NCBI GenBank assembly: GCA_030616605.1
Contig: JAUWWY010000003.1
Coordinates: 6,707-70,706, forward strand
Length of the DNA: 64,000 bases
Origin: a bacterium
Lineage (GTDB): Bacteria; Patescibacteriota; Minisyncoccia; Minisyncoccales; CG1-02-41-26
Direction: 5' to 3'
The notes beneath the pieces were generated by a model. It searched no databases. It saw nothing but the letters and a program-made list of their open reading frames with translations, and was not told where the DNA came from. The translations under genes were made by a program, and so were the position numbers. The stretch's first letter is position 1; the number at the start of each line of letters is the position of its first letter. Positions 1,988 through 36,049 of the stretch are shown piece by piece.

Positions 1988-4900
1988 ATGTTTAAGAAAG
2001 CTTTTTTAATTTTAATATCAATTCTTTTGATATTGTTTTTTATTAGCCCAGAAATTGTTTTTGCTCAAGAAAATCAGAACGTAAATTGGCCTCTTAAGCA
2101 AGGAGAAGTAGAAAACCTATTGGATATCATCAGAAAAGAACCTTTAACTGATGCAAATTTTAATCTTTTTTTTGAGTCATTATCTCATACCTATTCGGAC
2201 TATCCAAGAAAAACTGGAGCCGTAGTTTTAGTTAAACAAGCAATTTTAAAAGAACAATTGGATTATTGGTTTAAAGGAATTCCAAAGGAGCTTTCAAAAA
2301 AGTTTCTAAAAACTGCCTTAGAAATAGGCATAACAATAATTACCAAGGGCTCCTATGGAGCATATGATATTTTAAATCAGTTGGAGAAAATTACTGTTAA
2401 AAAAGCTAATGAATATGCTCTTAATTGGTTCCTTCAAAATGAAATAAAAATAGGAAGCGGTGAAACAAGTTATATCTTCCCTTCTTATAAAGGAAATACT
2501 CAAAAATTAGATATTCAATATATTATTGTTTACAAACCCCTAAGTCAAAATAAGAGAGAAATTGTTGCTGAATTTTATTCAAAAAATCCTATTGAGCCGC
2601 CGATAGGTACAAGACCTAATGCAATAGGAGGAAACAGAGATGACCCTAGATCAACCCCTTGGCCATCGGATCGCTGGATAGAAAATGAAAGACAACGAGA
2701 TAATGATGGAAAATTAGAGCCATTTATTGTAAGAGTTAAAGGATTTGTAGAGAGGAATGACTGGAATCAGTTTATTTGGGATAAATCAAAACCAAAACCA
2801 GTAGTTGAAATAGATTTTGACAAGCCAGTGCCGGAAATTGAGAACAGTGATATTATTTTGGAAAGTCCTCCATCAAAAATTTCTTTTGCTAAAGAGATAT
2901 CTAAGTTGCTCTTGGAAAAATTGAAATCTGGGGTGGGAGAAATAAAAGATACCACAGCAAATCTTATAAATAAAATTAAATCTTATCTTACCAGTATAGA
3001 ACCAGCCGCCCAGATTGAAAGTCACGATCTTCCAAAAGATCTATTATCAAAGCTTGAAGATCTATGGAGATTGAACCTCGATAGATTAACAGAAGAAGCA
3101 CTATCTCTTGAAAAAATTAAGGAAGCTCTGGAAGAGGAAGGGAAAGAATTTCCAGAAAAAATCAAACTCACTTTAGATGAACTTATTGAAAGATTTGATG
3201 ATATTTCAGAAGAAGCAGAAATACTTTTAGCTCAGGTAGAAAATTTTTTGGCAAAAGAAAACCAAGTAATAAGGGAAAATGGGATGATAGAGGAAAAAGT
3301 TGAAGAAGAAATCGAAGAAGAGGAAATTGAAAAAGTAGACGAGGAAAAACAAGAAGGAACTCCTGAACAAGAAATTATCTTTTGTTCTGTTTCAAATTAC
3401 CAAACTCCAACCAGAAATAAAGTTATTATCAATGAAATTGCCTGGATGGGAACTACTAATTCTTCAAACGATGAGTGGTTCGAGCTGAAAAATATTTCTC
3501 CAAATTCAATTGATTTAAGTGGCTGGCAGATTTTAGATAAAGACTTTCAAATAAAAATTGTTTTCAATAAAGAAGAACAAGTCTCCGGAGGACAGACCTC
3601 CGGAGGTGGCTTTTTTCTTTTGGAAAGAACTGATGATGATTCTGTACTGAACGTCCCAGCCGATTTCATTTATACTGGTGCTTTAAATGACAACAGTGAA
3701 GCTTTATATCTTTTTGATAAAGATTGTAATCTCCAAGACAAAATTGAAGCTATCTCAGATTGGCCAGCTGGGAATAAAAATTCTAAAAAAACAATGGAAA
3801 GAAAAAGTGATTTGGCCTGGCAAACAAGTCGGTATGTTGGTGGTACTCCGAAAGCTGAAAATAGTTCGGGCGAAACTCAATATAATGGCGGAGGCGGAGG
3901 AGCAGAGACACCCTCTCCCGAGCAACCAAAAGAAGAACCAAAAATCACTCTTTCTTATCTCGAAGAAAATCCAGTCAATAAAGAAATCGAAGTTGAATTA
4001 TCTGTCTCAGGATTAGAAGATGCTTCTTACGATGTGAAAATCTCGATTGAAAATGCCAGTGGAACGCTTTCTAAAATTTTTAATGAAAAAGAAAACGATT
4101 GGAAATCGTCAGCTTATTACCTCACCAATGTTTTTTCGGGGAATTCGTTTAAGGGAAATTTTAGATTAAAAATAATAGAAGATAAACAAGATTTCAGAGG
4201 CGAAGCAGATATTGTTGCAAAAATCAGAGAAAATGGAAAAAGCAAATATTTTGAATTCGCTGATAAAATTAATATTACAGAACCAGAAAAACAACCATTA
4301 GAAACAAAAGACTATTCTCCTTTAGATGTGGTAATCAATGAAATTGCCTGGATGGGAACTCAGGCTGATTATAATGATGAATGGCTTGAACTTTATAATA
4401 ATACCCCCGAAGAAGTTGATCTAAATGACTGGGTTATTAACTGGGGAGAAGGAACAAGTACCCGTTCTATTAACTTAACCGGGAATATCTCTGCTTATGG
4501 CTTTTATCTTTTAGAGAGAACAGCAAGTACAACAATTTCTGATATTGAAGAAGATCAAATTTATCATGGTGCCTTGGGAAATGAGGGCGAGAAATTAGAA
4601 TTAGTAGATTTAAATTCTAATCTGATTGACAAAGTTGATTGCTCAAGTGAATGGTTTGCCGGAAATAATGAAACAAAACATACAATGGAAAGAATTGACC
4701 CCAGGGTTTCTGGAAATAATTTAGAAAATTGGGCAGATAACAATGGAGTGGAAATAAACGGATCAGATGCTGAGGATAATTCAATTCTCGGCACCCCAAA
4801 AGTAAAAAACAGTGTCTTTTCAACTTTACCTCCTAATCCTGTATCTGACTTTGTTATTGATGAAGAAAATAGTAAATATAATACGGTCGTTTTAACTTGG

Positions 4901-6412
4901 TCCACCACCACTGATCCGGATACTGCTGAGCAAGATATTTCTTATGTTATTTATTGGGCAAAAGAAGAAATCGACGAAGAAAATGCTAGCACCACTAATC
5001 CAACTGCTTTTTCAACCAGCACGGTAACAACTACCCTTATTCTCTCTGTCCTTGATTACGACTCAACTTATTATTTCGGTATCCGAGCTTTTGACGGCGG
5101 AAATTATTCTTCCCTCTCGACTACCACTCCTTACAACACTCCTTTACCTCCAATCAATGATTTGAATGCTGGTACTTCAGCCATTAGAAAGACAGTTGAC
5201 CTTTTTTGGACAGCTCCGGGAGCAGAAAGTTATCTTATTAAGTATGCTGAAAAAGAAATTGTAGAAAACCCAACGAGCACCGAGAAAATAAGCTGGGAGG
5301 AAACCACCCTTGTTGAAAACTCAATAGTTCCTAAAGTAGCAGGAGAAATTGAAGGTTTTACTATTGAAAATTTAATTCCTGATAAAACATATTACTTTGC
5401 TATTAAATCAATAAATAAAGCAAATGCCTTCTCAGAAATTTCAAACTCTCCAAAAGCCAAAGCAATACCAGGCTTCCAAGACAATGGCGATGGAACAATA
5501 ACTGATTTATATACTGGCTTGATGTGGGTAAAAGACGGCAATGGCAGAGGCGCTAATAACGGACAGCCGCTGAGCTGGCAAGATGCAGAAACGTTTAGCG
5601 ACAACCTCGTCCTGTGTCAAAACGGGATATTCAGCACAAGCACTACCAGCACAATTTGCGCTGATAAGGGAGGAATAAAATACGATTACTGGCGCCTACC
5701 CGGGTTTAAGGAATTGGCTGCTATTGTTGATTATCAAGAGAGCAGTCCACTTATTAATCAGAACTTTTTTCCTAATACCTCCAGAACAAACTACTGGACT
5801 CTCTCTTATGATGATGTCCCTGGAATTGCTTATAATTATCCGAGCAGAAGCGATATTGAAACCGTAAATTTTAACAGCGGCACTTTGGAAATTATTTCTT
5901 CCAGAGCAGACCTACTTTATTATGTAAGACCTGTGCGCGGTCCTGCCATTGGCACACCCAACATCCTGCCGCCTGCCAATATGGACAACAGCCCAGCGCA
6001 ATACTGTCAGCTTGGTTATACAGAAAACGAAAAAACAATCACTGACAACTGCACTAACTTAATGTGGGTAAAAGGAGGCACTAGAGCTTTGTTAAGTGAT
6101 AGAGATAATGACCCTTTATCTCCTAAACCAGGCAATATTTCCTGGAAAGGAGCTGTTGCTTTTTGCGAGGGCTTAGAACTTGACGGCTATAATGACTGGC
6201 GTGTGCCTAATATTCTTGAATTGATTATAGTCGCCAATAGAAACGACCACAATATTCTTCCAACAGAAAGCGGCTATACTTATTATTATTTGTCATCTAC
6301 TGGAGATGAAAGCAATTTCTGGGGCGTTTGGAAAGAGGAAACCATAAAAACACATTATTTTTCCAAAGACAGCGGCGAACTTTACCTGCAGTGCCTGCGC
6401 AACATTAACTAA
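1988..6412 (+). CDS. Giant secreted surface protein with 2 lamin-tail domains, FN3-like repeats and 2 C-terminal DUF1566/Lcl-like domains
   Basis: There is an N-terminal signal or TM segment. NEIAWMG..NDEW(F/L)EL(K/Y)N occurs twice, which marks the LTD. The motifs TGLMWVKD, NLMWVKG, YWRLP and DWRVPNILEL fit DUF1566. Confidence 0.8.
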   Translation: MFKKAFLILISILLILFFISPEIVFAQENQNVNWPLKQGEVENLLDIIRKEPLTDANFNLFFESLSHTYSDYPRKTGAVVLVKQAILKEQLDYWFKGIPKELSKKFLKTALEIGITIITKGSYGAYDILNQLEKITVKKANEYALNWFLQNEIKIGSGETSYIFPSYKGNTQKLDIQYIIVYKPLSQNKREIVAEFYSKNPIEPPIGTRPNAIGGNRDDPRSTPWPSDRWIENERQRDNDGKLEPFIVRVKGFVERNDWNQFIWDKSKPKPVVEIDFDKPVPEIENSDIILESPPSKISFAKEISKLLLEKLKSGVGEIKDTTANLINKIKSYLTSIEPAAQIESHDLPKDLLSKLEDLWRLNLDRLTEEALSLEKIKEALEEEGKEFPEKIKLTLDELIERFDDISEEAEILLAQVENFLAKENQVIRENGMIEEKVEEEIEEEEIEKVDEEKQEGTPEQEIIFCSVSNYQTPTRNKVIINEIAWMGTTNSSNDEWFELKNISPNSIDLSGWQILDKDFQIKIVFNKEEQVSGGQTSGGGFFLLERTDDDSVLNVPADFIYTGALNDNSEALYLFDKDCNLQDKIEAISDWPAGNKNSKKTMERKSDLAWQTSRYVGGTPKAENSSGETQYNGGGGGAETPSPEQPKEEPKITLSYLEENPVNKEIEVELSVSGLEDASYDVKISIENASGTLSKIFNEKENDWKSSAYYLTNVFSGNSFKGNFRLKIIEDKQDFRGEADIVAKIRENGKSKYFEFADKINITEPEKQPLETKDYSPLDVVINEIAWMGTQADYNDEWLELYNNTPEEVDLNDWVINWGEGTSTRSINLTGNISAYGFYLLERTASTTISDIEEDQIYHGALGNEGEKLELVDLNSNLIDKVDCSSEWFAGNNETKHTMERIDPRVSGNNLENWADNNGVEINGSDAEDNSILGTPKVKNSVFSTLPPNPVSDFVIDEENSKYNTVVLTWSTTTDPDTAEQDISYVIYWAKEEIDEENASTTNPTAFSTSTVTTTLILSVLDYDSTYYFGIRAFDGGNYSSLSTTTPYNTPLPPINDLNAGTSAIRKTVDLFWTAPGAESYLIKYAEKEIVENPTSTEKISWEETTLVENSIVPKVAGEIEGFTIENLIPDKTYYFAIKSINKANAFSEISNSPKAKAIPGFQDNGDGTITDLYTGLMWVKDGNGRGANNGQPLSWQDAETFSDNLVLCQNGIFSTSTTSTICADKGGIKYDYWRLPGFKELAAIVDYQESSPLINQNFFPNTSRTNYWTLSYDDVPGIAYNYPSRSDIETVNFNSGTLEIISSRADLLYYVRPVRGPAIGTPNILPPANMDNSPAQYCQLGYTENEKTITDNCTNLMWVKGGTRALLSDRDNDPLSPKPGNISWKGAVAFCEGLELDGYNDWRVPNILELIIVANRNDHNILPTESGYTYYYLSSTGDESNFWGVWKEETIKTHYFSKDSGELYLQCLRNIN

Positions 6413-6425
6413 AATCTGTAGCTAT

Positions 6426-6468
6426 CACCGTCCCGACCGGTGTTAAATTGACACCGGTCGGGACGGTG
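6426..6468. other. Perfect 18-bp inverted repeat with a 7-nt loop between convergent genes
   Basis: The sequence is CACCGTCCCGACCGGTGT-TAAATTG-ACACCGGTCGGGACGGTG. Neither side has a clear U-tract, so a terminator role is uncertain. Confidence 0.7.
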
Positions 6469-6495
6469 TAAATTGACTCTCAAAATGAAGTAATA

Positions 6496-6531
6496 AAAAA
6501 AGTCCTCTTAATGAATTAAGGGGACTTTTGG
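6496..6531 (-). terminator. Intrinsic terminator of WG gene 1
   Basis: Minus-strand hairpin AAAAGTCCCCTTAA-TTCA-TTAAGAGGACTTTTT followed by a T-run. Confidence 0.7.
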
Positions 6532-6548
6532 TTTGTTTTGGGATTGTG

Positions 6549-6986
6549 TCAAGCTTCTCGGGTTCCGTCAGGACGAACCTGAAATTGCTTGCTGCCCTGT
6601 CTGGCCCAAGCCAAGCCTTTATGGAAGACACCGATAGAGTCATACCTCTGCTTGTAAGCAGGGTTTCCATCAGGATGGATGTGAAACTGTTCCCCGTTCT
6701 TCGTGGCTCGAGCCAGGCCTTTATTGAAGGAACCGACAGAATCATACTTCTGCTCGTAGGCAGGGGTTCCGTCAAGACGAATATGGAAGTATTCGCCGTC
6801 CTTTCTGGCCTCAGCCAAGCCTTCATGGAAGAGACCGACAAAGTCATATCTCTGCTCATAAGCAGGAGTTCCGTCAGGACGAATGTGAAACTGCTCGCTA
6901 CCCTTTTGAACCACAGCCAGGCCTTCATGGAAGGAACCGACAGAGTCATACATCTGCAACAGTTTTTCTCTTGTTAAAATTTCCAT
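6549..6986 (-). CDS. WG/KWG-type beta-repeat protein, 4 modules of 34 aa, no signal peptide
   Basis: 145 aa. It has a 12-aa cap followed by repeats of YDxVGxFxEGLAxxxKxxxxFHIRPDGTPAYxQR. The upstream SD is AAAGGAGAAAAGGAATG. Confidence 0.85.
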   Translation of the reverse strand: MEILTREKLLQMYDSVGSFHEGLAVVQKGSEQFHIRPDGTPAYEQRYDFVGLFHEGLAEARKDGEYFHIRLDGTPAYEQKYDSVGSFNKGLARATKNGEQFHIHPDGNPAYKQRYDSIGVFHKGLAWARQGSKQFQVRPDGTREA

Positions 6987-7046
6987 TCCTTTTCTCCTTT
7001 ATTATTGTTAATTATTGTTGTTAATGTACAAGCTAAAACTATTTAT

Positions 7047-7075
7047 AATATATCATACATATTCATTATTGTCAA
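7047..7075 (-). promoter_or_regulatory. Promoter TTGACA-17-TATATT for WG gene 1
   Basis: The minus strand reads TTGACAATAATGAATATGTATGATATATT. Confidence 0.6.
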
Positions 7076-7100
7076 AGAATATTAAACTGATGGAATAAAG

Positions 7101-7133
7101 AAAAGTCCTCTTAATGAATTAAGAGGACTTTTG
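7101..7133 (-). terminator. Intrinsic terminator of WG gene 2
   Basis: Palindrome AAAAGTCCTCTTAATGAATTAAGAGGACTTTT with a T-run on the minus strand. Confidence 0.75.
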
Positions 7134-7148
7134 GATTGTTTTGGATTG

Positions 7149-7484
7149 TCAACCTACTCTGGTTCCGTCAGGACGAATGTGAAACCGTCCGTTACCCTTT
7201 CTGACACAAGCCAGACCATCTTGGAAGGGAGCGACCCAGTTGTACCTCTGATTGTAAGCAGGGGTTCCGTCAGGATGAATGTGAAACCACTTGTTGCCAT
7301 TTTGGACCACAGCCAGACCTTCATGGAAGGGACCAACAAAGTCATATCTGTGCTTGTAAGCAGGGGTTCCGTCAGGACGAATTTGGAACTGTTTGTTATC
7401 CTTTCTGACCCAAGCCAGGCCCTCATGAAAGGAACCGACAGAGTCATACATTTTTAACAGTTCTTCTTTTGTTAAGGTTTTCAT
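7149..7484 (-). CDS. WG/KWG-type beta-repeat protein, 3 modules
   Basis: 111 aa with the same cap and 34-aa modules. The ORF track frame matches its paralogs. Confidence 0.85.
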   Translation of the reverse strand: MKTLTKEELLKMYDSVGSFHEGLAWVRKDNKQFQIRPDGTPAYKHRYDFVGPFHEGLAVVQNGNKWFHIHPDGTPAYNQRYNWVAPFQDGLACVRKGNGRFHIRPDGTRVG

Positions 7485-7531
7485 TCCTTTTTTCCTTTAT
7501 TATTGTCAATGTACAAGTTAAAACTATTTAT

Positions 7532-7560
7532 AATATATCATATATATTCATTATTGTCAA
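7532..7560 (-). promoter_or_regulatory. Promoter TTGACA-17-TATATT for WG gene 2
   Basis: Conserved cassette sequence. Confidence 0.6.
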
Positions 7561-7585
7561 AGAATATTTAAAATTGAGGGAATAA

Positions 7586-7618
7586 AAAAGTCCTCTTAAT
7601 GAATTAAGAGGACTTTTG
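7586..7618 (-). terminator. Intrinsic terminator of WG gene 3
   Basis: Same palindrome plus T-run. Confidence 0.75.
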
Positions 7619-7636
7619 GTTTGTTTTGGGATTGTA

Positions 7637-8074
7637 TTAATCTGCTCGGGTTCCGTCAGGATGAATGTAGAACGACTCTTTGTCCTTTCTGGCCCAAGCC
7701 AGGTCTTTGTAGAAGATACCGACAGAGTCATACCTCTGCTCGTAAGCAGGAGTTCCGTCAGGACGAATGTGGAACGACTTGCCATCCTTTCTGGCCACAG
7801 CTAGGCCTTCCTGGAAGGGACCGACAGAATCATATCTTTGCTCGTAAGCAGGGGTTCCGTCAGGACGAATGTGGAACCGCTGATCGTCTCCTTCGACCTG
7901 AGCCAGGCCTTCTTGGAAGGAACCGACCCAGTCATATCTTTGCTTGTAGGCAGGAGTTCCGTCAGGACGGATGTGGAACGACTCGCCGCCCTTACGGACT
8001 TCAGCCAGGCCTTCATGGAAATCACCAACCCAGTCATACCTCTGCAACAGCTCTTCTCTTGTTAAGGTTTCCAT
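7637..8074 (-). CDS. WG/KWG-type beta-repeat protein, 4 modules
   Basis: 145 aa paralog. Confidence 0.85.
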   Translation of the reverse strand: METLTREELLQRYDWVGDFHEGLAEVRKGGESFHIRPDGTPAYKQRYDWVGSFQEGLAQVEGDDQRFHIRPDGTPAYEQRYDSVGPFQEGLAVARKDGKSFHIRPDGTPAYEQRYDSVGIFYKDLAWARKDKESFYIHPDGTRAD

Positions 8075-8119
8075 TTCTTTTCTCCTTTATTATTGTCAAT
8101 GTTCAAATTAAGTATCCAT

Positions 8120-8148
8120 AATATATCATATATATTCATTATTGTCAA
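8120..8148 (-). promoter_or_regulatory. Promoter TTGACA-17-TATATT for WG gene 3
   Basis: Conserved cassette sequence. Confidence 0.6.
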
Positions 8149-8173
8149 AGAATATTTAAAATTGAGGGAATAA

Positions 8174-8206
8174 AAAAGTCCTCTTAATGAATTAAGAGGA
8201 CTTTTT
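8174..8206 (-). terminator. Intrinsic terminator of WG gene 4
   Basis: Same palindrome plus T-run. Confidence 0.75.
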
Positions 8207-8223
8207 GATTGTTTTGGATTGGA

Positions 8224-8763
8224 TCAATCTACTCTGGTTCCGTCAGAACGAATGTGGAACTCCTCGCCGTTCTTTGCGGCCCAAGCCAAGCCATCCTTGA
8301 AGGGACCAACAGCGTCATACCTCTGCTTATAAACAGGGATTCCATCAGCATGAATATGGAATTCCTTGTCGTCCTTTTTGACTCGAGCCAAGCCTTCATG
8401 AAAGGGACCGACAGAGTCATACCTCTGCTCGTAAGCAGGGGTTCCGTCAGAACGGATGTGGAACTCCTTGTCGTCCTTTTTGACCACAGCTAAACCTTCA
8501 TTGAAAGGACCGACAGAGTCATACCTCTGCTCGTAGGCAGGGGTTCCGTCAGGACGGATATGGAACTCTTTGCCGTCCTTTCTGGCCCAAGCCAGACCTT
8601 CATTGAAAGGACCGACAGAGTCATACCTCTGCTTGTAAACAGGGCTTCCATTAGGACGGATGTGGAACCACTCGTTGCCCTTTCTGGCCCAAGCCAGACC
8701 TTCATTGAAGTTACCAACAGAATCATACCTCCGCAACAGTTCTTCTCTTGTCAGGGTTTTCAT
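8224..8763 (-). CDS. WG/KWG-type beta-repeat protein, 5 modules
   Basis: 179 aa paralog. Confidence 0.85.
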   Translation of the reverse strand: MKTLTREELLRRYDSVGNFNEGLAWARKGNEWFHIRPNGSPVYKQRYDSVGPFNEGLAWARKDGKEFHIRPDGTPAYEQRYDSVGPFNEGLAVVKKDDKEFHIRSDGTPAYEQRYDSVGPFHEGLARVKKDDKEFHIHADGIPVYKQRYDAVGPFKDGLAWAAKNGEEFHIRSDGTRVD

Positions 8764-8810
8764 TTCTCTCCTCCTTTGTTATTGTCAATGTACAAGTTAA
8801 AACTATTTAT

Positions 8811-8839
8811 AATATATCATACATATTCATTATTGTCAA
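8811..8839 (-). promoter_or_regulatory. Promoter TTGACA-17-TATATT for WG gene 4
   Basis: Conserved cassette sequence. Confidence 0.6.
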
Positions 8840-8864
8840 AGAATATTGAAAGATAAAGTAATAA

Positions 8865-8897
8865 AAAAGTCCTCTTAATGAATTAAGAGGACTTTTG
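8865..8897 (-). terminator. Intrinsic terminator of WG gene 5
   Basis: Same palindrome plus T-run. Confidence 0.75.
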
Positions 8898-8914
8898 GAT
8901 TGGATTGTATTGTG

Positions 8915-9250
8915 TCAATCTACTCTGGTTCCATCGGGACGGATGTGGAACGATTCTTTGTCCTTTCTTGCCTGAGCCAGGCCGTCCTGGAAGGGGCCGA
9001 CCCAGTCATATTTTTGCTCATAAGCAGGTGTTCCGTTAGGATGAATGTGGAACCACTTCTCATCCTTTCCAGCCACAGCCAGACCTTCATAGAAGGGACC
9101 GACCCAGTCATATCTTTGCTTGTAAGCAGGGGTTCCGTCAGGATGAATGTGGAAGTATTCCTCACCTTTTCCAGCCTCAGCCAGGTCTTCGTGGAAGATA
9201 CCGACGTGGTCATACATCTGCAAGAGTTTTTTTCTTGTTAGGGTTTCCAT
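8915..9250 (-). CDS. WG/KWG-type beta-repeat protein, 3 modules
   Basis: 111 aa paralog. Confidence 0.85.
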   Translation of the reverse strand: METLTRKKLLQMYDHVGIFHEDLAEAGKGEEYFHIHPDGTPAYKQRYDWVGPFYEGLAVAGKDEKWFHIHPNGTPAYEQKYDWVGPFQDGLAQARKDKESFHIRPDGTRVD

Positions 9251-9293
9251 TCCTCTTTTCCTTTATTATTGTCAATGTACAAGTTAATTGTTT

Positions 9294-9322
9294 ATAGTAT
9301 ATAACATATTCATTATTGTCAA
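9294..9322 (-). promoter_or_regulatory. Promoter TTGACA-17-TACTAT for WG gene 5
   Basis: Variant -10 in an otherwise conserved cassette. Confidence 0.5.
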
Positions 9323-9345
9323 AGAATATTTAAAAATGATGGAAT

Positions 9346-9374
9346 AAAAAGGGCTAGCGTTTGCTAGCCCTTTT
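9346..9374 (-). terminator. Intrinsic terminator after the PRTase gene
   Basis: Hairpin GGGCTAGC-GTTT-GCTAGCCC flanked by A- and T-runs. Confidence 0.7.
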
Positions 9375-9390
9375 GGGTTGGTTTCAATTC

Positions 9391-10032
9391 CTATATACCT
9401 TCTCCAGCTTTGCGAGCGAGAAACTCCCGGCCCTTACCTACTTCAGTGTTGATTGGTACTCTTTGAGCACAGAGAGGGCAATCTGCTTCATCCCAGGATT
9501 CAAAGTCAAGATCAATGAGGGCAAAAATTTCAGGCACATTGCCAACATCTTCAGGGGTAATCCCGCCTCTGTTACAAAAAACACCGAGTCCAACCACTTC
9601 ACCCTCAAGATTCCGCACTGCTTCCACAACTTTTCTTGCCGAGCCTCCGGTAGTAAGAACATCTTCAACAACCAGAATACGTTGCTTAGCAATAGAGCCA
9701 GCATATCCCCGTTTAAAAATGAATGTCTTTCCATCTTCGGATTTTTCAGCAAAAACAGCAAGAATCGTTTCCCCCCTCAACTTACTCAGCCAATAAGCAG
9801 TCCATTGAGAAAGAATCACCCCGCCTACAGCCGGAGCAGCAACAACATCAATCCCGTATGAGGTTGGATTACGGAAATGCTCGGCAATCCCTTTGCACAA
9901 GGTGGATACGAGCTCGGCGTAGCGATAAACCGCATCTTTATTAATATAGATAGAGCCGTGCTTTCCTGAGGCTAAAACAAAATGACCCTTAAGAATTGCT
10001 CCAGTTCTCTCAAATATCTCTAATATTGCCAT
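9391..10032 (-). CDS. Type I phosphoribosyltransferase, orotate-PRTase-like
   Basis: 213 aa. The PRPP loop is ILVVEDVLTTGGS. The N-terminal segment GHFVLASGKHGSIYINKD is OPRT-like. A strong SD, AAGGAGA, lies upstream. Confidence 0.7.
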   Translation of the reverse strand: MAILEIFERTGAILKGHFVLASGKHGSIYINKDAVYRYAELVSTLCKGIAEHFRNPTSYGIDVVAAPAVGGVILSQWTAYWLSKLRGETILAVFAEKSEDGKTFIFKRGYAGSIAKQRILVVEDVLTTGGSARKVVEAVRNLEGEVVGLGVFCNRGGITPEDVGNVPEIFALIDLDFESWDEADCPLCAQRVPINTEVGKGREFLARKAGEGI

Positions 10033-10116
10033 TTTTAACTATCTCCTTTTTTTGTTTTTAAAGTTCAAGGTTTAGTAAACCAATACTAAAACAAATCTGA
10101 CAAAAAAACAAGAGAA
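10033..10116 (-). promoter_or_regulatory. Promoter-leader cassette, copy 1: TTGTTT-17-TAGTAT, palindrome GGTTTACTAAACC, and leader ending AAAAAAAGGAGA
   Basis: Nearly identical to 11775-11855 over about 85 nt. The palindrome lies at 10068-10082. Confidence 0.6.
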
Positions 10117-10149
10117 TAAAAAATGTCCCGAGATAGAATCTCGGGACAT
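10117..10149 (-). terminator. Intrinsic terminator after purH
   Basis: Hairpin ATGTCCCGA-N9-TCGGGACAT followed by TTTTTT on the minus strand. Confidence 0.75.
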
Positions 10150-10172
10150 TTATGGTTTTGGTTCTTGGTTTC

Positions 10173-11774
10173 TTAGTGATTAAAAAAACCACGACCAACT
10201 TTGTCAGGAATAAGATACATAGCCACTTTGTTCTTTTCGCAAAGCGTCTTTACTTCTTTATCACGAATCGAACCGCTTGAAGCAAGTATCACCTTGATTC
10301 CGGCTGCAGCAAGAACAGCTGGGCCATCAGAAAATGGAAAGAAACTGTCGCTATAAGCAACTGCTCCATTTAGGTTATGACCCATCTCTTTAGCTTTGCG
10401 AATTGCCAACCTGCAAGCTCCAACCCGATCATTCTGGCCAACGCCATTGCCAATAACATAGCCATCGCGCACCAGGGTGATTGTATTGCTGTTGCTGGTT
10501 GAACCAACTGCCCAGGCCAAGAGAAGGTCATTCTCCTGTTCAGGTGTTGCCTCACCGAGCTTTTCAAGTCGGGAATCTTGCAGATCTAGTACAAACATGT
10601 AGTTTGGTTGACGGAGAAATCCTCCAGGCACATACCGAAATCGAGGCGCAGAATCAAGACTTTCATAAGCAAGATGACTGAGTGCACGATTGGTTAAAAA
10701 CCTGCACTTGTCTTTTTTCCGTCTCAACATCTGAACTGCTTTTTCAGTGAATGTTGGAGCAATGATGCCATCCAGTAATCGACGCTGTCCTTCATCTACC
10801 AGAAAAGTAAGTAAAGCATCTGCTCTTATTTCATCCAGCAAGAAGCTTGTCATTACTATTCCGCCGAAAATAGCACGAGTGTCACCACTGACCATCATTC
10901 GAATAACATCAATACCGTTTGTCCCGACAGCGGCACCGCATGCATTTCCATGTTTACAGGCAACTGCTATCATGGGTACCCTGGAATGATTAATATCAAA
11001 CACAGCGGCGATGTGGGTAATGGTCTGAATTAATCGGGCAACATCAACAAGGTTGATATAGCTTGGCTCAATGCCGGCGATAGACTGAAATCTGTCCAAT
11101 GACAATTGGTAGTCTGAACCAGTGCTAAACAATGCCGCGGGTGTTTGCCAGGGATTTTCTCCGTAGCGACAAATCGCTACCTGATGGCCAATAAAGCCAT
11201 CGTGTTTTCCCTTACTGTGATAACGAGCAGAAGTAAAAGAGTACTCAGCTGCCACTGCCTCTGCTTTGGCTGCCAGTTCAGTGATAAAAGTGTCTTCATT
11301 CGGCTTGCCGTTTTTCAACCAGTCAATTACTTGCAGGCGGTCATCAGCGTCGCAAATTACGATACGGCGTCCTTTGGCAGCAGACCGAAGAATTGTCGGG
11401 CCACCAACGTCAGTCTGCTCTATAACAGACTCAGGAGTACTTCCAGGGGCATTGATTGCTTCATGAAGCGGATAAAGATCCACACAGGCTAAGTCAATCC
11501 GGGGGATTTTCAGTCTTTCTAACTCATTAATATCCTCTTGAGAACCTGTGGCTTGGAGACCGGCATGGACTTCTCGAGAAAGAGTAACAACCCGGTGACC
11601 TAAAATCGCGCCGCCACCAACCAATTCAGCAACATCTTGAACCGGAATATCTGCTTTAGCCAGGGTCTTAGCTGTTCCTCCTGATGCAAGAAGTTGCCAG
11701 CCGAGTTCCACTAATTGTCTGGCAAACTCTTCAATTCCCGATTTATTGTAAACCGATAAGAGTGCTGTTTTCAT
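10173..11774 (-). CDS. purH: Bifunctional AICAR transformylase / IMP cyclohydrolase
   Basis: 533 aa. It has the MGS-like N-domain (ALLSVYNKSGIEEFARQL..ASGGTAK) followed by an AICARFT domain. Confidence 0.85.
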   Translation of the reverse strand: MKTALLSVYNKSGIEEFARQLVELGWQLLASGGTAKTLAKADIPVQDVAELVGGGAILGHRVVTLSREVHAGLQATGSQEDINELERLKIPRIDLACVDLYPLHEAINAPGSTPESVIEQTDVGGPTILRSAAKGRRIVICDADDRLQVIDWLKNGKPNEDTFITELAAKAEAVAAEYSFTSARYHSKGKHDGFIGHQVAICRYGENPWQTPAALFSTGSDYQLSLDRFQSIAGIEPSYINLVDVARLIQTITHIAAVFDINHSRVPMIAVACKHGNACGAAVGTNGIDVIRMMVSGDTRAIFGGIVMTSFLLDEIRADALLTFLVDEGQRRLLDGIIAPTFTEKAVQMLRRKKDKCRFLTNRALSHLAYESLDSAPRFRYVPGGFLRQPNYMFVLDLQDSRLEKLGEATPEQENDLLLAWAVGSTSNSNTITLVRDGYVIGNGVGQNDRVGACRLAIRKAKEMGHNLNGAVAYSDSFFPFSDGPAVLAAAGIKVILASSGSIRDKEVKTLCEKNKVAMYLIPDKVGRGFFNH

Positions 11775-11855
11775 CTTTTTCTCCTTTTTTTGTTTTTAAA
11801 GTTCAAGGTTTAATAAACCAATACTAAAACAAATCTGAAAAAAAGGCAAGAGAAA
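11775..11855 (-). promoter_or_regulatory. Promoter-leader cassette, copy 2: TTGCCT-17-TAGTAT, palindrome GGTTTATTAAACC, and leader ending AAAAAAAGGAGA
   Basis: Near-identical to copy 1. The palindrome lies at 11816-11830. Confidence 0.6.
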
Positions 11856-11899
11856 TAAAAAATGATGGACCGAAAATAAATCAAAGAATTAACTTATTT

Positions 11900-11941
11900 A
11901 AAAAGCCCAACATTGACGTTGTCACTGTTGGGCTTTTTTAT
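11900..11941. terminator. Bidirectional-looking terminator after purE
   Basis: Stem AGCCCAACA...TGTTGGGCT flanked by an A-run and a T-run. Confidence 0.7.
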
Positions 11942-11943
11942 TT

Positions 11944-12441
11944 TCACTTTTCTTTTGATGATAAAATGTCAAACTGGGCTGGTTTACGATTTTTCAGAAG
12001 AAATCTCCCTAACCCATCTTCAACGGTCTTGTCACCAATGGCAACGATTTGACAAGCCAGAATAGCTGCATTATACAACCCTGACTTACCAATGCCTGGA
12101 ACAGCAACCGGTATGCCAGAAGGCATACGGACCATTGAGAAAAGTGCATCCTGACCATCAAGCACCTCTGAAATCAAAGGTACCCCAATAACGAGTCGAT
12201 GACGGATATGAGAGGCAATCGCACCAGCAAGATGGGCTGCCATCCCAGCTGCAGCGATAAAAACGACTGTCTCTTTTCCTTCCTCCTTGCAATACGTTTT
12301 TAAGTCAGCCGGGTTACGATGAGCTGAGATAATGGAAAGTTTCCAAGATACTCCTATTTCGCTTAAAACACCAAGTATTTCAGATTCTTCCACTATCGTC
12401 ATGTCGCTTTTACTTCCTAAAATGACAACGACTTGGGACAT
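11944..12441 (-). CDS. purE: N5-carboxyaminoimidazole ribonucleotide mutase
   Basis: 165 aa. The motifs VVVILGSKSD and AAGMAAHLAG fit the PurE family. Confidence 0.85.
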   Translation of the reverse strand: MSQVVVILGSKSDMTIVEESEILGVLSEIGVSWKLSIISAHRNPADLKTYCKEEGKETVVFIAAAGMAAHLAGAIASHIRHRLVIGVPLISEVLDGQDALFSMVRMPSGIPVAVPGIGKSGLYNAAILACQIVAIGDKTVEDGLGRFLLKNRKPAQFDILSSKEK

Positions 12442-12473
12442 AGTTTATCCTTTCTTTCAGGTTTTAACCGATT

Positions 12474-13958
12474 TCAAATACCCAATATCTCTTGAAAAAG
12501 TCTTGCCTCATTTCTCAAAAGATACGATGGTAAGAAAATCTGATTCCAACGATCAAGATTTTCTTGGTCGCTGAAAATTCGTTTCAGAATCTCGTTCCAT
12601 CTTTGAATATCCTCTTCTTCAGCCCCTAATTGAGATGAGGGCTTGAGCTGTGCTTTGGCAATGATGTCCTGGATTGAAACCGGAGTTGAAACCGGGACTT
12701 GTTGAGATTTTAGAAACAACTTATTCATTTCAACAAGAGACCCTGCCAGATTTTCTCGCAACTTCTTTGCTCCATCGCTTGGTTCAAACGCATTAAAGGC
12801 AGCTAGTTGAACTATCCTATAAGCATCTTCAGTAGTTAAACCAAAAGCAATGCCAGATTCTTTTAAAACTTCCTTTACTTCACTTGAAGCATAGCAGCCA
12901 CGAGATTCAATCACCTCCAAAAGCATGTTATCCGGGTAGACCACCAAGTCCTTAAGAACCCGGGTCATAGTTTTAAGGGAACGGATTACCACATGGAAAA
13001 GATCAGGCCAAGCCACCCTTTCCACACAGGACTGTTCAATTGCCCTTTCTTCCCAGGTCCTGATATTATCCATAATCATCAGGTAATATCCCTTTGCCAT
13101 TCTTCCCATGCCCTCTGTTTGTTCGGTAGAGATAGTGTTTTTCTTATGGGGCATGGCTGAAGAACCTTTTTGTTTTTTACCAAAGGGCTCCTGATAAATC
13201 GGTCGGCCACTCCTGGCTCCCAGGCGAATAGTGATGGCGATTTTGTCAAGAGTGAGTACAATTTGGCAAAGAGCCTGGGCAATTGGCGCGTAGAGCTCCC
13301 TAGGAATTATCTGGGTTGCCCCATAATAAGGTTCAAAACCCAGAATTCTCAGTGCTTCTTTTTCAACTACTGGCTCTATGGTTCCGTAGTTACCGATTGC
13401 CCCGGATAACTTAGAGTACTTCAGGTTTTGTTCGGCTTTCCCTAAATTATCAATATCAACCTCAAGGTCTTGACGCCAAGTAAGGCAACGTTTGCCAAAT
13501 GTTTGAAGCTCTGCTTCCTGACCATGAGTGCGGGCATTCATTATAGTGTAGCGATATCTCCGAGCCATTTGTTCCAGAATTGTCTCAAGTGCTTCATAAT
13601 ACATTTTCACTAATAGGAGCGATTCTTTTAGCATTCCGGCAAAGGGTGCTTCTTCAGTATCGTAAGAAGTTATCTTTTTATGGAAATATAACTGAAGTTC
13701 GGGCGATAAAAACCTTAACCGCTCCTCAAGGAAAGCGTTTAAATCGTGGTGAATCTCTTGGTCTTTTTGCAACCACCAATCCAAATCTATTGGGGTTTTG
13801 GTCAAGATTGCTGAGATTTCCTCGTAGATTTTCTTAGGCACTTTGCCCAAATTAGCCATCGCCTGAATCACTGCTAGCTCGGTTCTCTGCCAGAGACCTA
13901 ACTTGTGTTCGTTAGACCAAATTACAGTAATCACTTCGTCTTCATATCTTTCTATCAT
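12474..13958 (-). CDS. purB: Adenylosuccinate lyase, start revised to MIERYEDE
   Basis: Fumarate-lyase family (SSAMPHKKN signature). GGAGG lies 8 nt upstream of the ATG at 13958. The 33-codon extension in the ORF track overlaps the promoter and terminator. Confidence 0.8.
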   Translation of the reverse strand: MIERYEDEVITVIWSNEHKLGLWQRTELAVIQAMANLGKVPKKIYEEISAILTKTPIDLDWWLQKDQEIHHDLNAFLEERLRFLSPELQLYFHKKITSYDTEEAPFAGMLKESLLLVKMYYEALETILEQMARRYRYTIMNARTHGQEAELQTFGKRCLTWRQDLEVDIDNLGKAEQNLKYSKLSGAIGNYGTIEPVVEKEALRILGFEPYYGATQIIPRELYAPIAQALCQIVLTLDKIAITIRLGARSGRPIYQEPFGKKQKGSSAMPHKKNTISTEQTEGMGRMAKGYYLMIMDNIRTWEERAIEQSCVERVAWPDLFHVVIRSLKTMTRVLKDLVVYPDNMLLEVIESRGCYASSEVKEVLKESGIAFGLTTEDAYRIVQLAAFNAFEPSDGAKKLRENLAGSLVEMNKLFLKSQQVPVSTPVSIQDIIAKAQLKPSSQLGAEEEDIQRWNEILKRIFSDQENLDRWNQIFLPSYLLRNEARLFQEILGI

Positions 13959-14036
13959 TTCTCTTCCTCCTTTTTTGTTAATGTTCAAACTTATGAAAGT
14001 TATATTAAAACAAATCTGTGAAAAAAGCAAGAGAAG
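13959..14036 (-). promoter_or_regulatory. Promoter-leader cassette, copy 3 (diverged): TTGCTT-17-TAATAT with leader AAAAAAGGAGG
   Basis: Shares CTCTTGC...CAGATTTGTTTTA and the A-rich SD leader with copies 1 and 2. Confidence 0.55.
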
Positions 14037-14071
14037 AAAAAGCCCGTCAGAGGTCAAAAGACATGACGGGC
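14037..14071 (-). terminator. Intrinsic terminator after the 14103-14600 gene
   Basis: Stem GCCCGTCA...TGACGGGC followed by TTTTT on the minus strand. Confidence 0.7.
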
Positions 14072-14102
14072 ATTGAGATTGAGCAACGAGCTGGTCTTAT
14101 AT

Positions 14103-14600
14103 CTACCAGGCTCGAAAGCTCTCCAGAGTAGTAACGAGATGCTCCTGGTTGCGAATCGTGTTCATTGCCAGGTTGAGCTGGGCTAGAGCCAAGTCGATTT
14201 GGCTGACTGAAAAGGGCTGAACAATGTCCTTGTTCTGCGGCCAAGGCTCCCAGACCTGTTTGCCATCCATTTCGAAAGAGACGGAATTTAAGCCACTCTC
14301 GGGAAACTCGCGGATGATGAGCCGATCAAACTGTTCGTCACCATTATAATCGTGGCCGCTGATGGCGAACGGATTGGGCGCCGATTCCTCATACTTCTTA
14401 GGGTGAAGATGAACCAGGCGATACCAGGCGCCGCTCCACATGTATTCTTCTATCAGCACGTCATAGACACCGAGTTCACCCTCGTAGAGGTTCCAAGCAT
14501 CGAGATTTGACTTTGATTTGCTACTAATGAAAATGACTGCTACACAGAGGAGTATCACGACAGCGAAGGCAAGCAGGTTTATTGGTGTAGTTACTCTCAT
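14103..14600 (-). CDS. Hypothetical membrane-anchored protein
   Basis: 165 aa. The N-terminal TM segment is INLLAFAVVILLCVAVIFI. The SD AAGGGAGAG lies upstream. Confidence 0.6.
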   Translation of the reverse strand: MRVTTPINLLAFAVVILLCVAVIFISSKSKSNLDAWNLYEGELGVYDVLIEEYMWSGAWYRLVHLHPKKYEESAPNPFAISGHDYNGDEQFDRLIIREFPESGLNSVSFEMDGKQVWEPWPQNKDIVQPFSVSQIDLALAQLNLAMNTIRNQEHLVTTLESFRAW

Positions 14601-14656
14601 TTTTCTCTCCCTTTGTTTTTGTTAAAGTTCTGGTTTCTAATTTCAAGAACACCTAA

Positions 14657-14685
14657 ATTATAGCAAATTTTATACCTTTTGTCAA
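14657..14685 (-). promoter_or_regulatory. Consensus promoter TTGACA-17-TATAAT with an extended TGC
   Basis: The minus strand reads TTGACAAAAGGTATAAAATTTGCTATAAT. Confidence 0.7.
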
Positions 14686-14687
14686 GA

Positions 14688-14716
14688 TTAAAATATCCCG
14701 AGGCGTAGCCTCGGGA
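14688..14716 (-). terminator. Hairpin after tRNA-Lys
   Basis: Stem TCCCGAGGC-GTA-GCCTCGGGA followed by a U-rich stretch, TATTTTAAT. Confidence 0.5.
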
Positions 14717-14721
14717 ATTTG

Positions 14722-14798
<77 letters not shown>

Positions 14799-14804
14799 AA
14801 AAAG

Positions 14805-33180: not shown

Positions 33181-33390
33181 GGTTCAGCTTAAAATTTAGC
33201 CGATAATCAATAATAACCACATAAATAACCACATATTTAATGCAATTAAATTTTTAAAGAACTTCATTCAATCAGCTAGGAAATTAAAAACTACTTCTCG
33301 AAAGAAGCAGTTAAAATTCAGATAAAAAATCTCTGGTTTCTAACCACCTCTTTTAATAAAAACTAGTTTAAAATCCTGCATACTTTTTTT

Positions 33391-33418
33391 AGTTTAACAA
33401 AATAAAAAGGCTTGTCAA
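33391..33418 (-). promoter_or_regulatory. Separate 23S-5S promoter TTGACA-16-TAAACT
   Basis: The minus strand reads GGGGGTTGACAAGCCTTTTTATTTTGTTAAACT. Confidence 0.6.
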
Positions 33419-33424
33419 CCCCCA

Positions 33425-33471
33425 TAAAAAACAAACTTACCTCTTTTCCTGAAAAAGAAGTAAGTTTGTTT
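33425..33471 (-). terminator. Strong terminator after the membrane protein gene
   Basis: A stem of about 19 bp, AAACAAACTTAC.TCTTTT/AAAAGA.GTAAGTTTGTTT, followed by TTTTTT. Confidence 0.75.
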
Positions 33472-33524
33472 TCAAGAAACCTTTTTTTGGAGTTTACTCG
33501 CCCACTTTTTAGAAAAGTGGGGAA

Positions 33525-34205
33525 TTATTCTCCAACTTTTCTTCTAAATTGCTCTAAAAGGTCTCTGGCTAAATCTTTTCCTCCGATACCAAAAGCAATA
33601 GAAGAACTAATAACAATCAATGCAACAAATCCTGAAACCAAAATCTGAATAATCTCTTTAGCTATTCCTAACTGAGACAAAATTGCTAAAATAGCAAAAA
33701 TCCAAACTGCCCACTTAACAATTGCTCCTAAAACCTTAGAAGAAGCAACTTCCATTCTGCCAACAATCGCCTTTGCTAATTTCTCAGAAAAATCAGCTAC
33801 AATTGCTGCTACCACAAAAATAGCAACAGCTATCAATAAGTTAGGAAGCCAGCTAACAATATCTTTTAAAAAGCCGGCAAATGCTGTTAAACCCAAAATT
33901 TGAACCGATGCCAATAAAAAGACAATTATCAAAACCCATTTGACTATCGATCCAATAAAATCTGAAACTGTCATTTTAAACTCGGCTTTCTCCAATACTT
34001 TATCCCATTTTGCCTTTTCAAAAATTCTATTCAGCCTCAATCTTTTTAAAAGCTCAGCAATACCTTTTCCAACCCAAATAGCAATTAACCAACCGATTAT
34101 AAAGACAATCAAAGCTCCAATCAGCTCAGGAAGAAAACTTATAAAACCCTCCCAGAGTTTCTGAAGGGCGTTTAGAGTAATAGATGACCAATCTTGAAGA
34201 AACAT
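33525..34205 (-). CDS. Polytopic membrane protein with conserved TM-helix repeats, like the N-terminal region of MscS
   Basis: 226 aa with repeated helices of the type LPNLLIAVAIFVVAAIVADFSEKLAKAIV. Confidence 0.6.
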   Translation of the reverse strand: MFLQDWSSITLNALQKLWEGFISFLPELIGALIVFIIGWLIAIWVGKGIAELLKRLRLNRIFEKAKWDKVLEKAEFKMTVSDFIGSIVKWVLIIVFLLASVQILGLTAFAGFLKDIVSWLPNLLIAVAIFVVAAIVADFSEKLAKAIVGRMEVASSKVLGAIVKWAVWIFAILAILSQLGIAKEIIQILVSGFVALIVISSSIAFGIGGKDLARDLLEQFRRKVGE

Positions 34206-34279
34206 ATTTATTCAGCTTAAAAAATCTTATAAACCTCTCCGACCTTTATTATAGAATCTTAATCTATTATACAAAATAA

Positions 34280-34576
34280 TAAAAAGAGCCGACAAGAGCC
34301 AGCTGTGGATAACTCAAACGAGAAAAAAAGTGGAAATTGCTGGAAAAAGTTAGAACCCATTACCAGAAAAATCCGGACTCCTGACCTGCCCGCCACGGGC
34401 AGTAATCCGCTAACGCGGATTCCCACCCTCCACTCATATGTCCTGCTTCGCAGGATAGACAAACGGGTAAAAAATATCCTTCCCCAGACCCCTTCCTTTT
34501 TTTACCCGTCTGCTCAAAAGGCGAGCCGGGGGGGAATTTCCGCGCTTCGTGCGGAAAAAAATCTATAAAGGATTAT
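34280..34576 (-). ncRNA. Unclassified structured RNA of about 295 nt (or a long cis-leader)
   Basis: It has its own TGCTATAAT promoter. There are at least six hairpins, including 7-bp stems AATCCGC/GCGGATT and CTGCCCG/CGGGCAG and a 16-bp A/U-clamped stem with a 23-nt purine loop. It ends in a terminator-like AGCUGGC-UCUU-GUCGGCU plus a U-run. Confidence 0.55.
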
Positions 34577-34582
34577 GGGATC

Positions 34583-34591
34583 ATTATAGCA
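34583..34591 (-). promoter_or_regulatory. Extended -10 promoter TGCTATAAT for the structured RNA
   Basis: The minus strand reads TTTTTTGCTATAATGATCC. Confidence 0.5.
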
Positions 34592-34632
34592 AAAAATCGC
34601 CTATTTGGCGACCCCGTTGAGGGTGAACCTCA
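34591..34632 (-). terminator. Terminator of the HTH-HEPN operon
   Basis: Hairpins TTGAGG-TTCAC-CCTCAA and TCGCC-AAATA-GGCGA followed by TTTTTT. Confidence 0.65.
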
Positions 34633-34655
34633 ACAAGCTAGCTTAGGGGTAAATT

Positions 34656-35441: not shown

Positions 35442-35446
35442 ATTTC

Positions 35447-35620: not shown

Positions 35621-35622
35621 AG

Positions 35623-35829: not shown

Positions 35830-35831
35830 AG

Positions 35832-36047: not shown

Positions 36048-36049
36048 GA

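Follow-up and report, generated by a model that had tools for sequence, protein, structure and literature searches.

Highly similar upstream sequences standing before non-homologous genes of one genome have been described as putative mobile promoters (Matus-Garcia, Nijveen and van Passel 2012), the families of which are defined at positions -150 to -50 (commentary PMC3575422). The subject of the present analysis is a repeated promoter and leader cassette in a 64,000-nt stretch of DNA from a Patescibacteriota bacterium (contig JAUWWY010000003.1, positions 6,707 to 70,706; the whole stretch is hereafter called the window). It stands before three units, namely a pyrE-like phosphoribosyltransferase (PRTase) gene, purH, and purB with purE. 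The cassettes exemplify promoter reuse; their association with purine and pyrimidine genes is conserved, they are located on a compositionally foreign island, and they probably represent paralogous copies of one reused, pathway-specific sigma-70-type promoter and leader module.

Two further kinds of known system offer a comparison at such genes. The PurR and PurBox regulons have one cis signature across scattered pur and pyr units, and a dyad overlapping the promoter. Riboswitches (ZTP/pfl, purine and phosphoribosyl pyrophosphate, PRPP) occupy the 5' leaders of the same target genes (purH, purB, pyrE-type).

Anatomy of the cassettes

Three related minus-strand stretches are present, each between the T-tail of a terminator hairpin and the Shine-Dalgarno (SD) sequence of the downstream gene. 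All coordinates are positions in the window unless a locus is named, and L001 to L023 are loci from contigs of relatives. The parts of the cassettes are:

10033-10123 (similar stretch 10042-10123), minus strand: cassette A1, before the pyrE-like PRTase gene
10106-10111 and 10083-10088, minus strand: A1 promoter, -35 TTGTTT and -10 TAGTAT
10069-10081 and 10055-10068, minus strand: A1 dyad GGTTTACTAAACC and leader box TTGAACTTTAAAAA
10043-10048 and 10030-10032, minus strand: A1 SD AAGGAG and ATG
11775-11861 (similar stretch 11780-11861), minus strand: cassette A2, before purH
11844-11849 and 11821-11826, minus strand: A2 promoter, -35 TTGCCT and -10 TAGTAT
11807-11819 and 11793-11806, minus strand: A2 dyad GGTTTATTAAACC and leader box
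11781-11786 and 11772-11774, minus strand: A2 SD AAGGAG and ATG
13959-14042 (similar stretch 13961-14042), minus strand: cassette B, before purB-purE
14025-14030 and 14002-14007, minus strand: B promoter, -35 TTGCTT and -10 TAATAT
13988-14001 and 13975-13988, minus strand: B dyad AACTTTCATAAGTT and leader box TTGAACATTAACAA
13966-13972 and 13956-13958, minus strand: B SD AAGGAGG and ATG

An earlier, sequence-only reading of this DNA had described near-identical cassettes of about 85 nt before the PRTase gene and purH and a diverged one before purB. This description is borne out: an ungapped alignment of the PRTase and purH copies over 82 nt gives 93% identity, and the purB copy shows 63% identity. 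The -35 and -10 boxes are likewise as it gave them, with a spacing of 17 nt in all three cassettes, though they match the sigma-70 consensus at 7 of 12 positions, which is below the threshold of the promoter scan; the promoters of neighbouring island genes match at 11-12 of 12 in the same scan. Its 13-bp palindrome GGTTTA-N-TAAACC is exact in both A-type dyads, and the separate palindrome of the purB copy, AACTT-TCAT-AAGTT, is the B dyad listed above. Each cassette has one exact copy of the core CAGATTTGTTTTA, and the 64 kb contain no other; when up to two mismatches are allowed, its number in the window is at chance level. The coding sequences flanking the three cassettes do not align with each other, and the cassettes are therefore not a segmental duplication.

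There is a likeness to putative mobile promoters: the sequence stands before non-homologous genes of one genome, it matches no known RNA family or insertion sequence, and relatives in other genomes carry copies. Families of putative mobile promoters are drawn at an identity of at least 80% over at least 50 nt with non-paralogous coding sequences, and the A-type pair exceeds this. The position differs, however, as the repeat extends from about -92 to -8, with only about 40 nt inside the -150 to -50 interval, and includes the -10 box, the 5' untranslated region (UTR) and the SD. Moreover, two related pathways supply the targets here, with an association kept across lineages, which looks more regulon-like than random spread.

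In the proposed module, the T-tail of the upstream terminator is followed by a conserved pyrimidine-rich block, TTCTCTTG and then a T-tract, with a weak -35 box (TTGYYT), then by a spacer of 17 nt, within which C(A/G)GATTTG is conserved, and the putative -10 box TARTAT, and finally by an A-rich, unstructured predicted 5' UTR of about 45 nt, which holds a TTGAAC-N-TTAAMAA box, and a strong AAGGAG ribosome-binding site. Such a module would drive purB-purE, purH and the pyrE-like PRTase gene as separate units insulated by terminators, and because one module stands before three separate units, these would share one transcriptional input. The module is older than this genome and accompanies purine and pyrimidine genes in a small Patescibacteria clade, lying here on a putative horizontally acquired island beside a tRNA-Lys gene. 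The near identity of the PRTase and purH copies probably arose by concerted evolution (gene conversion between repeats 1.7 kb apart), and not by recent duplication.

Homologues, gene specificity and age of the module

At least five other metagenomic lineages have homologous cassettes, which stand before purH, purB, the PRTase gene or pyrF. The window's own purH, PRTase and purB products are members of large Patescibacteria families in which few proteins are close to them. The relevant loci, with identities to the window, are:

L001 (also L002 and L012): ParA, tRNA-Leu, cassette, purH and a terminator like that of the window
L015: tRNA-Lys 3' fragment, terminator as at window 14696-14716, B-type cassette and purB, followed by a purH-type terminator, A-type cassette, PRTase gene and WG-repeat-like gene
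L014: PRTase 90% identical; the contig starts within the cassette before the PRTase gene
L016 and L017: purB 78-79% identical; a longer version of the cassette before pyrF, and in L017 before two pyrF paralogues
L003: purH 73% identical; promoter half before pyrF
L004: purH 71% identical; promoter half before a non-orthologous purB (27% identity)

The purH of L001, a locus of about 44% GC throughout, is 86% identical to that of the window by global alignment (89% by BLASTP), and L015 shows 86% identity for purB and 74% for the PRTase. In L015 the purH-type terminator stands before the PRTase cassette, and L001 has a diverged copy of it after purH. The cassette was not found before purB in L020-L023, where purB is about 70% identical.

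Some features of these loci are of separate interest. L015 is without purE, the second cassette and purH, and the junction lies in a shared AAAACC (L015 1737-1790; window 12441-12473 and 10150-10172), which suggests a 2.3-kb deletion or insertion via microhomology between the 3' flanks of purB and purH. The purH of L001 (11440-11600) seems to be frameshifted near its 3' end, as its product ends at 11524 and homology extends to about 11600; this is either an assembly error or gene decay. In the purB leaders of relatives there are GC-rich structured inserts, at 2440-2640 of L004 (about 200 nt) and 4190-4310 of L017 (about 100 nt), and the insert at 205-235 of L015 is the hairpin UCUCACCAGGCUCGGCCUCGUGAGA (leader fold z = -2.0).

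The promoter half is specific to these genes in the sequence examined. A position weight matrix was built from 11 promoter halves and scored over about 170 kb; ten in-register instances score 37-47 bits and all other sequence at most 20 bits, the L003 training instance reaching just 17.6 bits on account of its 1-nt indel. An nhmmer profile from which L003 and L004 had been left out retrieved their pyrF (E = 1.9e-4) and purB (E = 4.5e-4) promoters as the best unbiased non-training matches in 227 kb, the next being at E = 0.014. A higher-scoring hit in L010 was disregarded here, that locus having been retrieved with a DNA pattern that contains part of the motif. No gene outside the pur and pyr sets was matched by the promoter profile in the 227 kb. 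The element lies upstream of pur or pyr genes in the window, L001, L003, L004, L015, L016 and L017, and the module thus appears to be tied to purine and pyrimidine genes, as far as models trained on such promoters may tell. That the cassette is simply the generic promoter of the donor lineage is ruled out by the ordinary TTGACA-17-TATAAT promoters at other genes in 21 kb of L001. Among 185,579 species genomes, a set from which the source genome is evidently absent, the pattern GATTTGTTTYARTAT-N14-16-TTGAAC had five hits, of which the one inspected (L007) was due to chance and the other four are in unrelated taxa. A stricter pattern found only L012, another contig of the L001 organism, in the JGI metagenomes, and a pattern scan of IMG/VR gave one hit, by chance.

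The leader box shows a wider distribution. Its positions in the window are:

7018-7031, 7503-7516, 8093-8106, 8782-8795, 9269-9282, 10055-10068, 11793-11806 and 13975-13988, minus strand: leader box

The corresponding 14-mer TTGNACNTTRAMAA occurs 8 times against 0.15 expected, always in 5' UTRs of the island, and this statistic is partly circular, as the pattern was refined after the sites had been seen. Three of the boxes are in pur cassettes and five stand before WG-repeat genes with a different, consensus-like promoter. The box starts 14-15 nt past the -10 box in the cassettes checked, and in the relatives (L001, L014-L019) it is always in a 5' UTR, once behind an unrelated promoter (L017 purB). 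Its complementarity to the host 16S rRNA is not above that of shuffles. As judged by its sequence, then, the cassette of the earlier reading is a composite of a pathway-specific promoter half, a variable dyad, and a lineage-wide leader box followed by the SD.

Conservation was compared with that of fourfold-degenerate sites. Cassette and fourfold-site identities are 87% and 82% for purH (window and L001), 85% and 71% for the PRTase gene (window and L015), and 76% and 77% for purB (window and L015). Since the cassettes are only slightly above fourfold-site identity in these close lineages, most of their similarity may be attributed to inheritance. Relative to L003, fourfold sites have reached saturation in pyrF and the PRTase gene (identity 0.27-0.30), and for purH the identity is 0.55. 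The L003 block, consisting of TCCTCTTG, the T-tract and CTTGG.T.TG.TTTAAT, aligns with L017 at about 28 of 32 positions (by eye, with a 1-nt indel allowed). Because the block is retained at this distance despite saturated fourfold sites, a constraint on the -35 flank and spacer may be argued for.

The presence of cassettes in other lineages implies that the module is older than their separation. Synteny is kept between the window and L015 for the PRTase cassette together with its terminator, and between the window and L001 for the cassette of purH. It follows that the duplication is old and that its copies evolved in concert. Among the four A-type copies (PRTase and purH of the window, purH of L001 and PRTase of L015), five sites group by genome and none by gene, and two of these five genome-specific sites are changed in the purB-type copy too. 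This pattern indicates concerted evolution, which either gene conversion or co-evolution with a factor could have caused.

Several points weigh against a module specific to these pathways. The excess over fourfold-site conservation in close relatives is so small that the similarity could be largely shared ancestry, and the argument for constraint leans mainly on two distant cases (L003 and L004), in sequence that is T-rich. The matrix and the profile were trained on pur and pyr promoters, which makes the test of specificity partly circular, and the related sequence examined amounts to only about 230 kb. Finally, the hexamers, with 7 of 12 consensus positions, are not listed by the promoter scan, and the activity of the promoter and its start site are both predictions.

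Alternative explanations

Known regulatory elements were sought in the window. Rfam at gathering score returned only rRNA and tRNA families, with no cis-regulatory hit, and a search of 9900-14800 with E up to 10 returned only weak chance hits, none of them related to ZTP, purine, PRPP or PyrR. This comparison of the leader with Rfam, which the sequence-only reading had suggested for ZTP/pfl and purine riboswitches, excludes the known elements, and a known riboswitch or leader RNA was accordingly ruled out. The leaders of the window, taken from the -10 box to slightly beyond the start codon, have folding energies of about -3 kcal/mol (z +0.8, +0.2 and -0.4). Across lineages z ranges from -0.8 to +1.35, apart from the L015 purB leader with its inserted hairpin. 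As these fold energies are not below those of shuffles, a leader hairpin was ruled out as well. Thus, although the cassettes share their target genes and 5' leader position with the riboswitches, they differ from them in having no covariance-model match, no stable structure, and an A-rich leader of about 45 nt.

The operator consensus of the E. coli PurR is ACGCAAACGTTTGCGT, and the PurBox of the Bacillus and Lactococcus PurR is AWWWCCGAACWWT. The former, a 16-bp palindrome with the core GCAAACGTTTGC, has 21 matches with up to three mismatches (28 expected), and the latter has 66 matches in the window with up to two mismatches (69 expected); none of either is in the cassettes. The cassettes resemble the PurR and PurBox regulons in presenting one signature across scattered units and a dyad over the promoter, but they contain neither consensus, no LacI-type or PRT-type PurR is encoded nearby, and their conserved part comprises the -35 flank and spacer but not the dyad.

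The sequence-only reading took the cassettes for a small regulon with a shared operator or leader hairpin. The regulon-like association with a set of genes holds, with homologues across genomes; the operator and the hairpin are not supported. According to the operator model, GGTTTA-N-TAAACC (AACTT-N4-AAGTT at purB) would be a dimeric-repressor site on the transcription start. The A-type and B-type dyads do share one central alignment column, two pairs are changed on both sides (G-C to A-T and G-C to C-G), and a dyad with 6-bp arms at a given 15-nt placement has a chance of about 3.5%. In the window, however, perfect dyads (6-bp arms, spacer of 0-4) have a frequency of about three per kb. The exact GGTTTANTAAACC is found there twice, and the motif is absent from the remainder of the window; because the two perfect copies are duplicates of each other, they constitute one observation only. 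Moreover, GGTTTAYTAAACC is perfect only in this genome: the orthologous A-type box in L001 and L015 is ATTTTATTAAAC(C/T), with four of six pairs in L001 (ATTTTATTAAACC) and five of six in L015 (ATTTTATTAAACT), and over six sequences 77.5% of the cells are paired against 72.7% in shuffles, 56 of 500 shuffles doing as well. The half-sites of the A-type and B-type dyads also differ, such that one protein could not recognise both, and the dyad is out of register in L016 and L017. It is improbable that the palindrome is an operator, and the same applies to a function of the dyad in general; the 13-bp palindrome is most likely incidental. Still less credit can be given to the model in which the palindrome is the hairpin of a riboswitch, an attenuator or a 5' stabiliser. 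The genes are classic targets of riboswitches (ZTP, purine, PRPP), and in the purB dyad one pair is changed from C-G to G-C and another is U-G, which is tolerated by RNA only. The Rfam searches, however, had no hit up to E = 10, and the folding energies of the leaders (about 45 nt) are -1.5 to -3.3 kcal/mol, with z in the range given above. In addition, the dyad straddles the predicted start site: the -10 box TARTAT would place the start near the centre of the dyad, so that the 5' arm would be untranscribed and the dyad would not be a leader hairpin. Even in a transcript, a 6-1-6 palindrome would not form all six pairs, because a loop needs at least 3 nt. A leader RNA is thus extremely unlikely.

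The remaining explanations concern the origin of the cassettes and the factor that may read them. The sequence-only reading had also offered recently duplicated expression cassettes. This is contradicted by their presence in lineages already about 20-30% diverged at fourfold sites and by a repeat without coding sequence; and whereas that reading would have given up a regulon for a motif found nowhere else and a duplication including coding sequence, the palindrome is indeed unique to the pair in the window but the repeat excludes coding sequence. In a related form, a recent segmental duplication or an assembly artefact, such as a chimeric contig of two organisms, would account for the 93% identity of the A-type copies and for an island sharply unlike its flanks in GC, in GC at third codon positions (GC3) and in SD usage. 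It is nevertheless very unlikely, as the repeat lacks coding sequence, the same cassettes are in other lineages, host-like sequence lies on both sides of the island within one contig, and the island genes adjoin a tRNA-Lys 3' end in the independent assembly L015. Little more probable is a miniature mobile element of about 100 bp with imperfect terminal inverted repeats, or its variant, an anti-SD mimic whose pyrimidine block would pair with the SD region in read-through transcripts, such that only transcripts from the cassette's own promoter would be translated. In each cassette the -35 flank (UUCUCUU and U-tract) is complementary to the SD leader and start region of the same cassette over 19-26 nt at 75-81% (10024-10125, 11766-11863 and 13950-14042), a pairing by which the SD might be hidden in read-through transcripts; in the purB copy UUCUCUU is perfectly paired with AAGAGAA between SD and AUG, and folds of the whole-cassette RNA in the window have z of -2.8, -1.0 and -1.6. 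The same folds in L001, L015 and L017, however, have z of +0.6, +0.1 and -0.2, and this long-range pairing was set aside as inconsistent between lineages. The arms, moreover, are low-complexity sequence (T-rich against A-rich) that includes the gene's own start codon, and there are neither target-site duplications nor copies away from pur and pyr genes. Correia repeats and other miniature inverted-repeat transposable elements (cited in PMC3575422) are similar in being repeats of about 100 bp with imperfect inverted ends that supply -35 and -10 boxes; the cassettes differ in occurring as three copies in one orientation exactly at gene starts, with low-complexity ends and without target-site duplications or copies at unrelated loci. 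A regulon with a dedicated factor is of another kind, being a stronger version of the promoter and leader module and not an alternative to it. A transcription factor or specialised sigma factor would read TTCTCTTG, the T-tract, N4 and GATTTG, and would couple purine and pyrimidine expression to nucleotide supply. The conserved positions are not in the hexamers but in parts that could vary in a generic promoter; the block is kept before the pyrF of L003 and the non-orthologous purB of L004 (27% identity), with synonymous sites at or near saturation; the weak consensus is typical of factor-dependent promoters, while neighbouring island genes have near-perfect TTGACA-17-TATAAT; and two sites, C/T just 5' of the -35 box and A/G in CAG/CGG, vary jointly throughout the three cassette types of a genome. 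On the other hand, no candidate regulator is in or next to the island, the only helix-turn-helix proteins of the window being HrcA and a DeoR-like protein (289-885), gene conversion explains the co-varying sites equally well, the sample consists of about 11 promoters from at most eight lineages, and purB homologues of about 70% identity are without the cassette. A dedicated factor is therefore regarded as possible, though on the unlikely side, and the regulon idea is kept in the weaker form of a shared promoter with a possible factor reading the -35 flank and spacer. A further extension must be called speculative and rather unlikely: a clade-specific Patescibacteria pur/pyr regulon whose factor would read TTCTCTTG, the T-tract, N4, GATTTG and TARTAT, which would move between lineages as ready-made terminator-promoter-leader-gene units, and whose leader of TTGNACNTTRAMAA and AAAGGAG would enable translation of the imported genes by the anti-SD-less ribosome of the host.

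The island and the host translation signals

On the minus strand, the order of genes is tRNA-Lys, a 165-aa open reading frame (ORF), purB, purE, purH and the pyrE-like PRTase gene. The features around the cassettes are:

14722-14798, minus strand: tRNA-Lys(UUU), at the right edge of the island
14103-14600, minus strand: 165-aa ORF without family match
14039-14074, minus strand: terminator-like hairpin (CCCGTCA...TGACGGG) after the 165-aa ORF, then a T-run; upstream of cassette B
12474-13958, minus strand: purB (adenylosuccinate lyase, 494-aa form)
11944-12441, minus strand: purE, 165 aa, without a cassette of its own, 32 nt after purB
11900-11938, minus strand: terminator-like hairpin after purE with 18-nt arms, 94% complementary, then a T-run; upstream of cassette A2
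10173-11774, minus strand: purH, 533 aa (5-aminoimidazole-4-carboxamide ribonucleotide formyltransferase / inosine monophosphate cyclohydrolase)
10121-10151, minus strand: intrinsic terminator of purH, 14-bp stem, its T-tail extending into cassette A1
9391-10032, minus strand: PRTase gene, 213 aa (PF00156; best NCBIfam pyrE_Therm, below cut-off)
6440-14720, minus strand: compositionally foreign island of about 8 kb carrying the cassettes (left boundary approximate)

As purE stands only 32 nt after purB, it is probably co-transcribed with purB. The island (about 6.4-14.7 kb) contains five WG_beta_rep genes, the PRTase gene, purH, purE, purB and the 165-aa ORF. Its GC is 42-50% and its GC3 0.35-0.60, against 29-35% and 0.20-0.27 in the flanks. 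An SD of the AAAGGAG type precedes 10 of 10 island genes, whereas even a 4-mer SD core (-18 to -4) is present in only 3 of 38 host ORFs. The 3' end of the host 16S rRNA (36837-36856, minus strand) is GAUCAUUUCUUUA, compared with the consensus GAUCACCUCCUUU, UUUCU replacing the anti-SD CCUCC. Loss of the anti-SD motif has been reported in a subgroup of Parcubacteria (PMC9297842); no description of an SD-bearing island within an anti-SD-less genome was found in the literature. From these features we infer horizontal acquisition from a Patescibacteria lineage of higher GC that uses SD sequences, like that of L001.

The position of the island recalls tRNA-adjacent genomic islands in that a block of distinct composition lies at the 3' end of a tRNA-Lys gene and a relative carries a partial tRNA-Lys 3' end. 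In L015, tRNA-Lys is represented by no more than its 3'-terminal 27 nt, which, with a tandem-duplicated 15-mer CACAAATTCCCGAGG after them, stand before the same island genes (L015 70-140; window 14696-14798), and the left context differs from that of the window, the gene to the left not being dnaJ. The tRNA-Lys remnant and duplication look like a remnant of an attachment (att) site. The island differs from the described ones in that no integrase was found in it, no second tRNA-Lys 3' end that could serve as an att repeat is in the window, and its left boundary is diffuse.

Other observations were made in the window. The five WG_beta_rep genes are in tandem at 6440-9350, each with its own TTGACA-17-TATATT cassette TTGACAATAATGAATATGTATGATATATTATAAATAG and a near-identical terminator AAAAGTCCTCTTAAT..ATTAAGAGGACTTTT; the same promoter cassette is before a YkuD gene in L014. 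Two ORFs of surface type, at 1988-6412 (1474 aa, with LTD, fn3 and Lcl_C) and 59889-63992 (1367 aa), are very large and have a common motif TGTCACCGGTCGGGACGGTG and GC-richer repetitive 3' parts; the 1474-aa ORF makes the left end of the island less distinct. The rRNA operon contains an interruption (33181-36485) of 3.3 kb between tRNA-Ala and 23S rRNA, in which an MscS-like membrane protein (33525-34205) and an HEPN_Swt1 protein (34656-35441) are encoded.

Gene regulation in the uncultivated, reduced-genome Patescibacteria is almost unknown, and the module provides a concrete cis element for it; if it is only an inherited promoter, the cassette is a case of ordinary promoter reuse. The setting on the island may be more instructive than the cassette itself. 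Genes with SD sequences in a host without the anti-SD motif constitute a natural experiment in the expression of foreign genes across incompatible styles of translation initiation.

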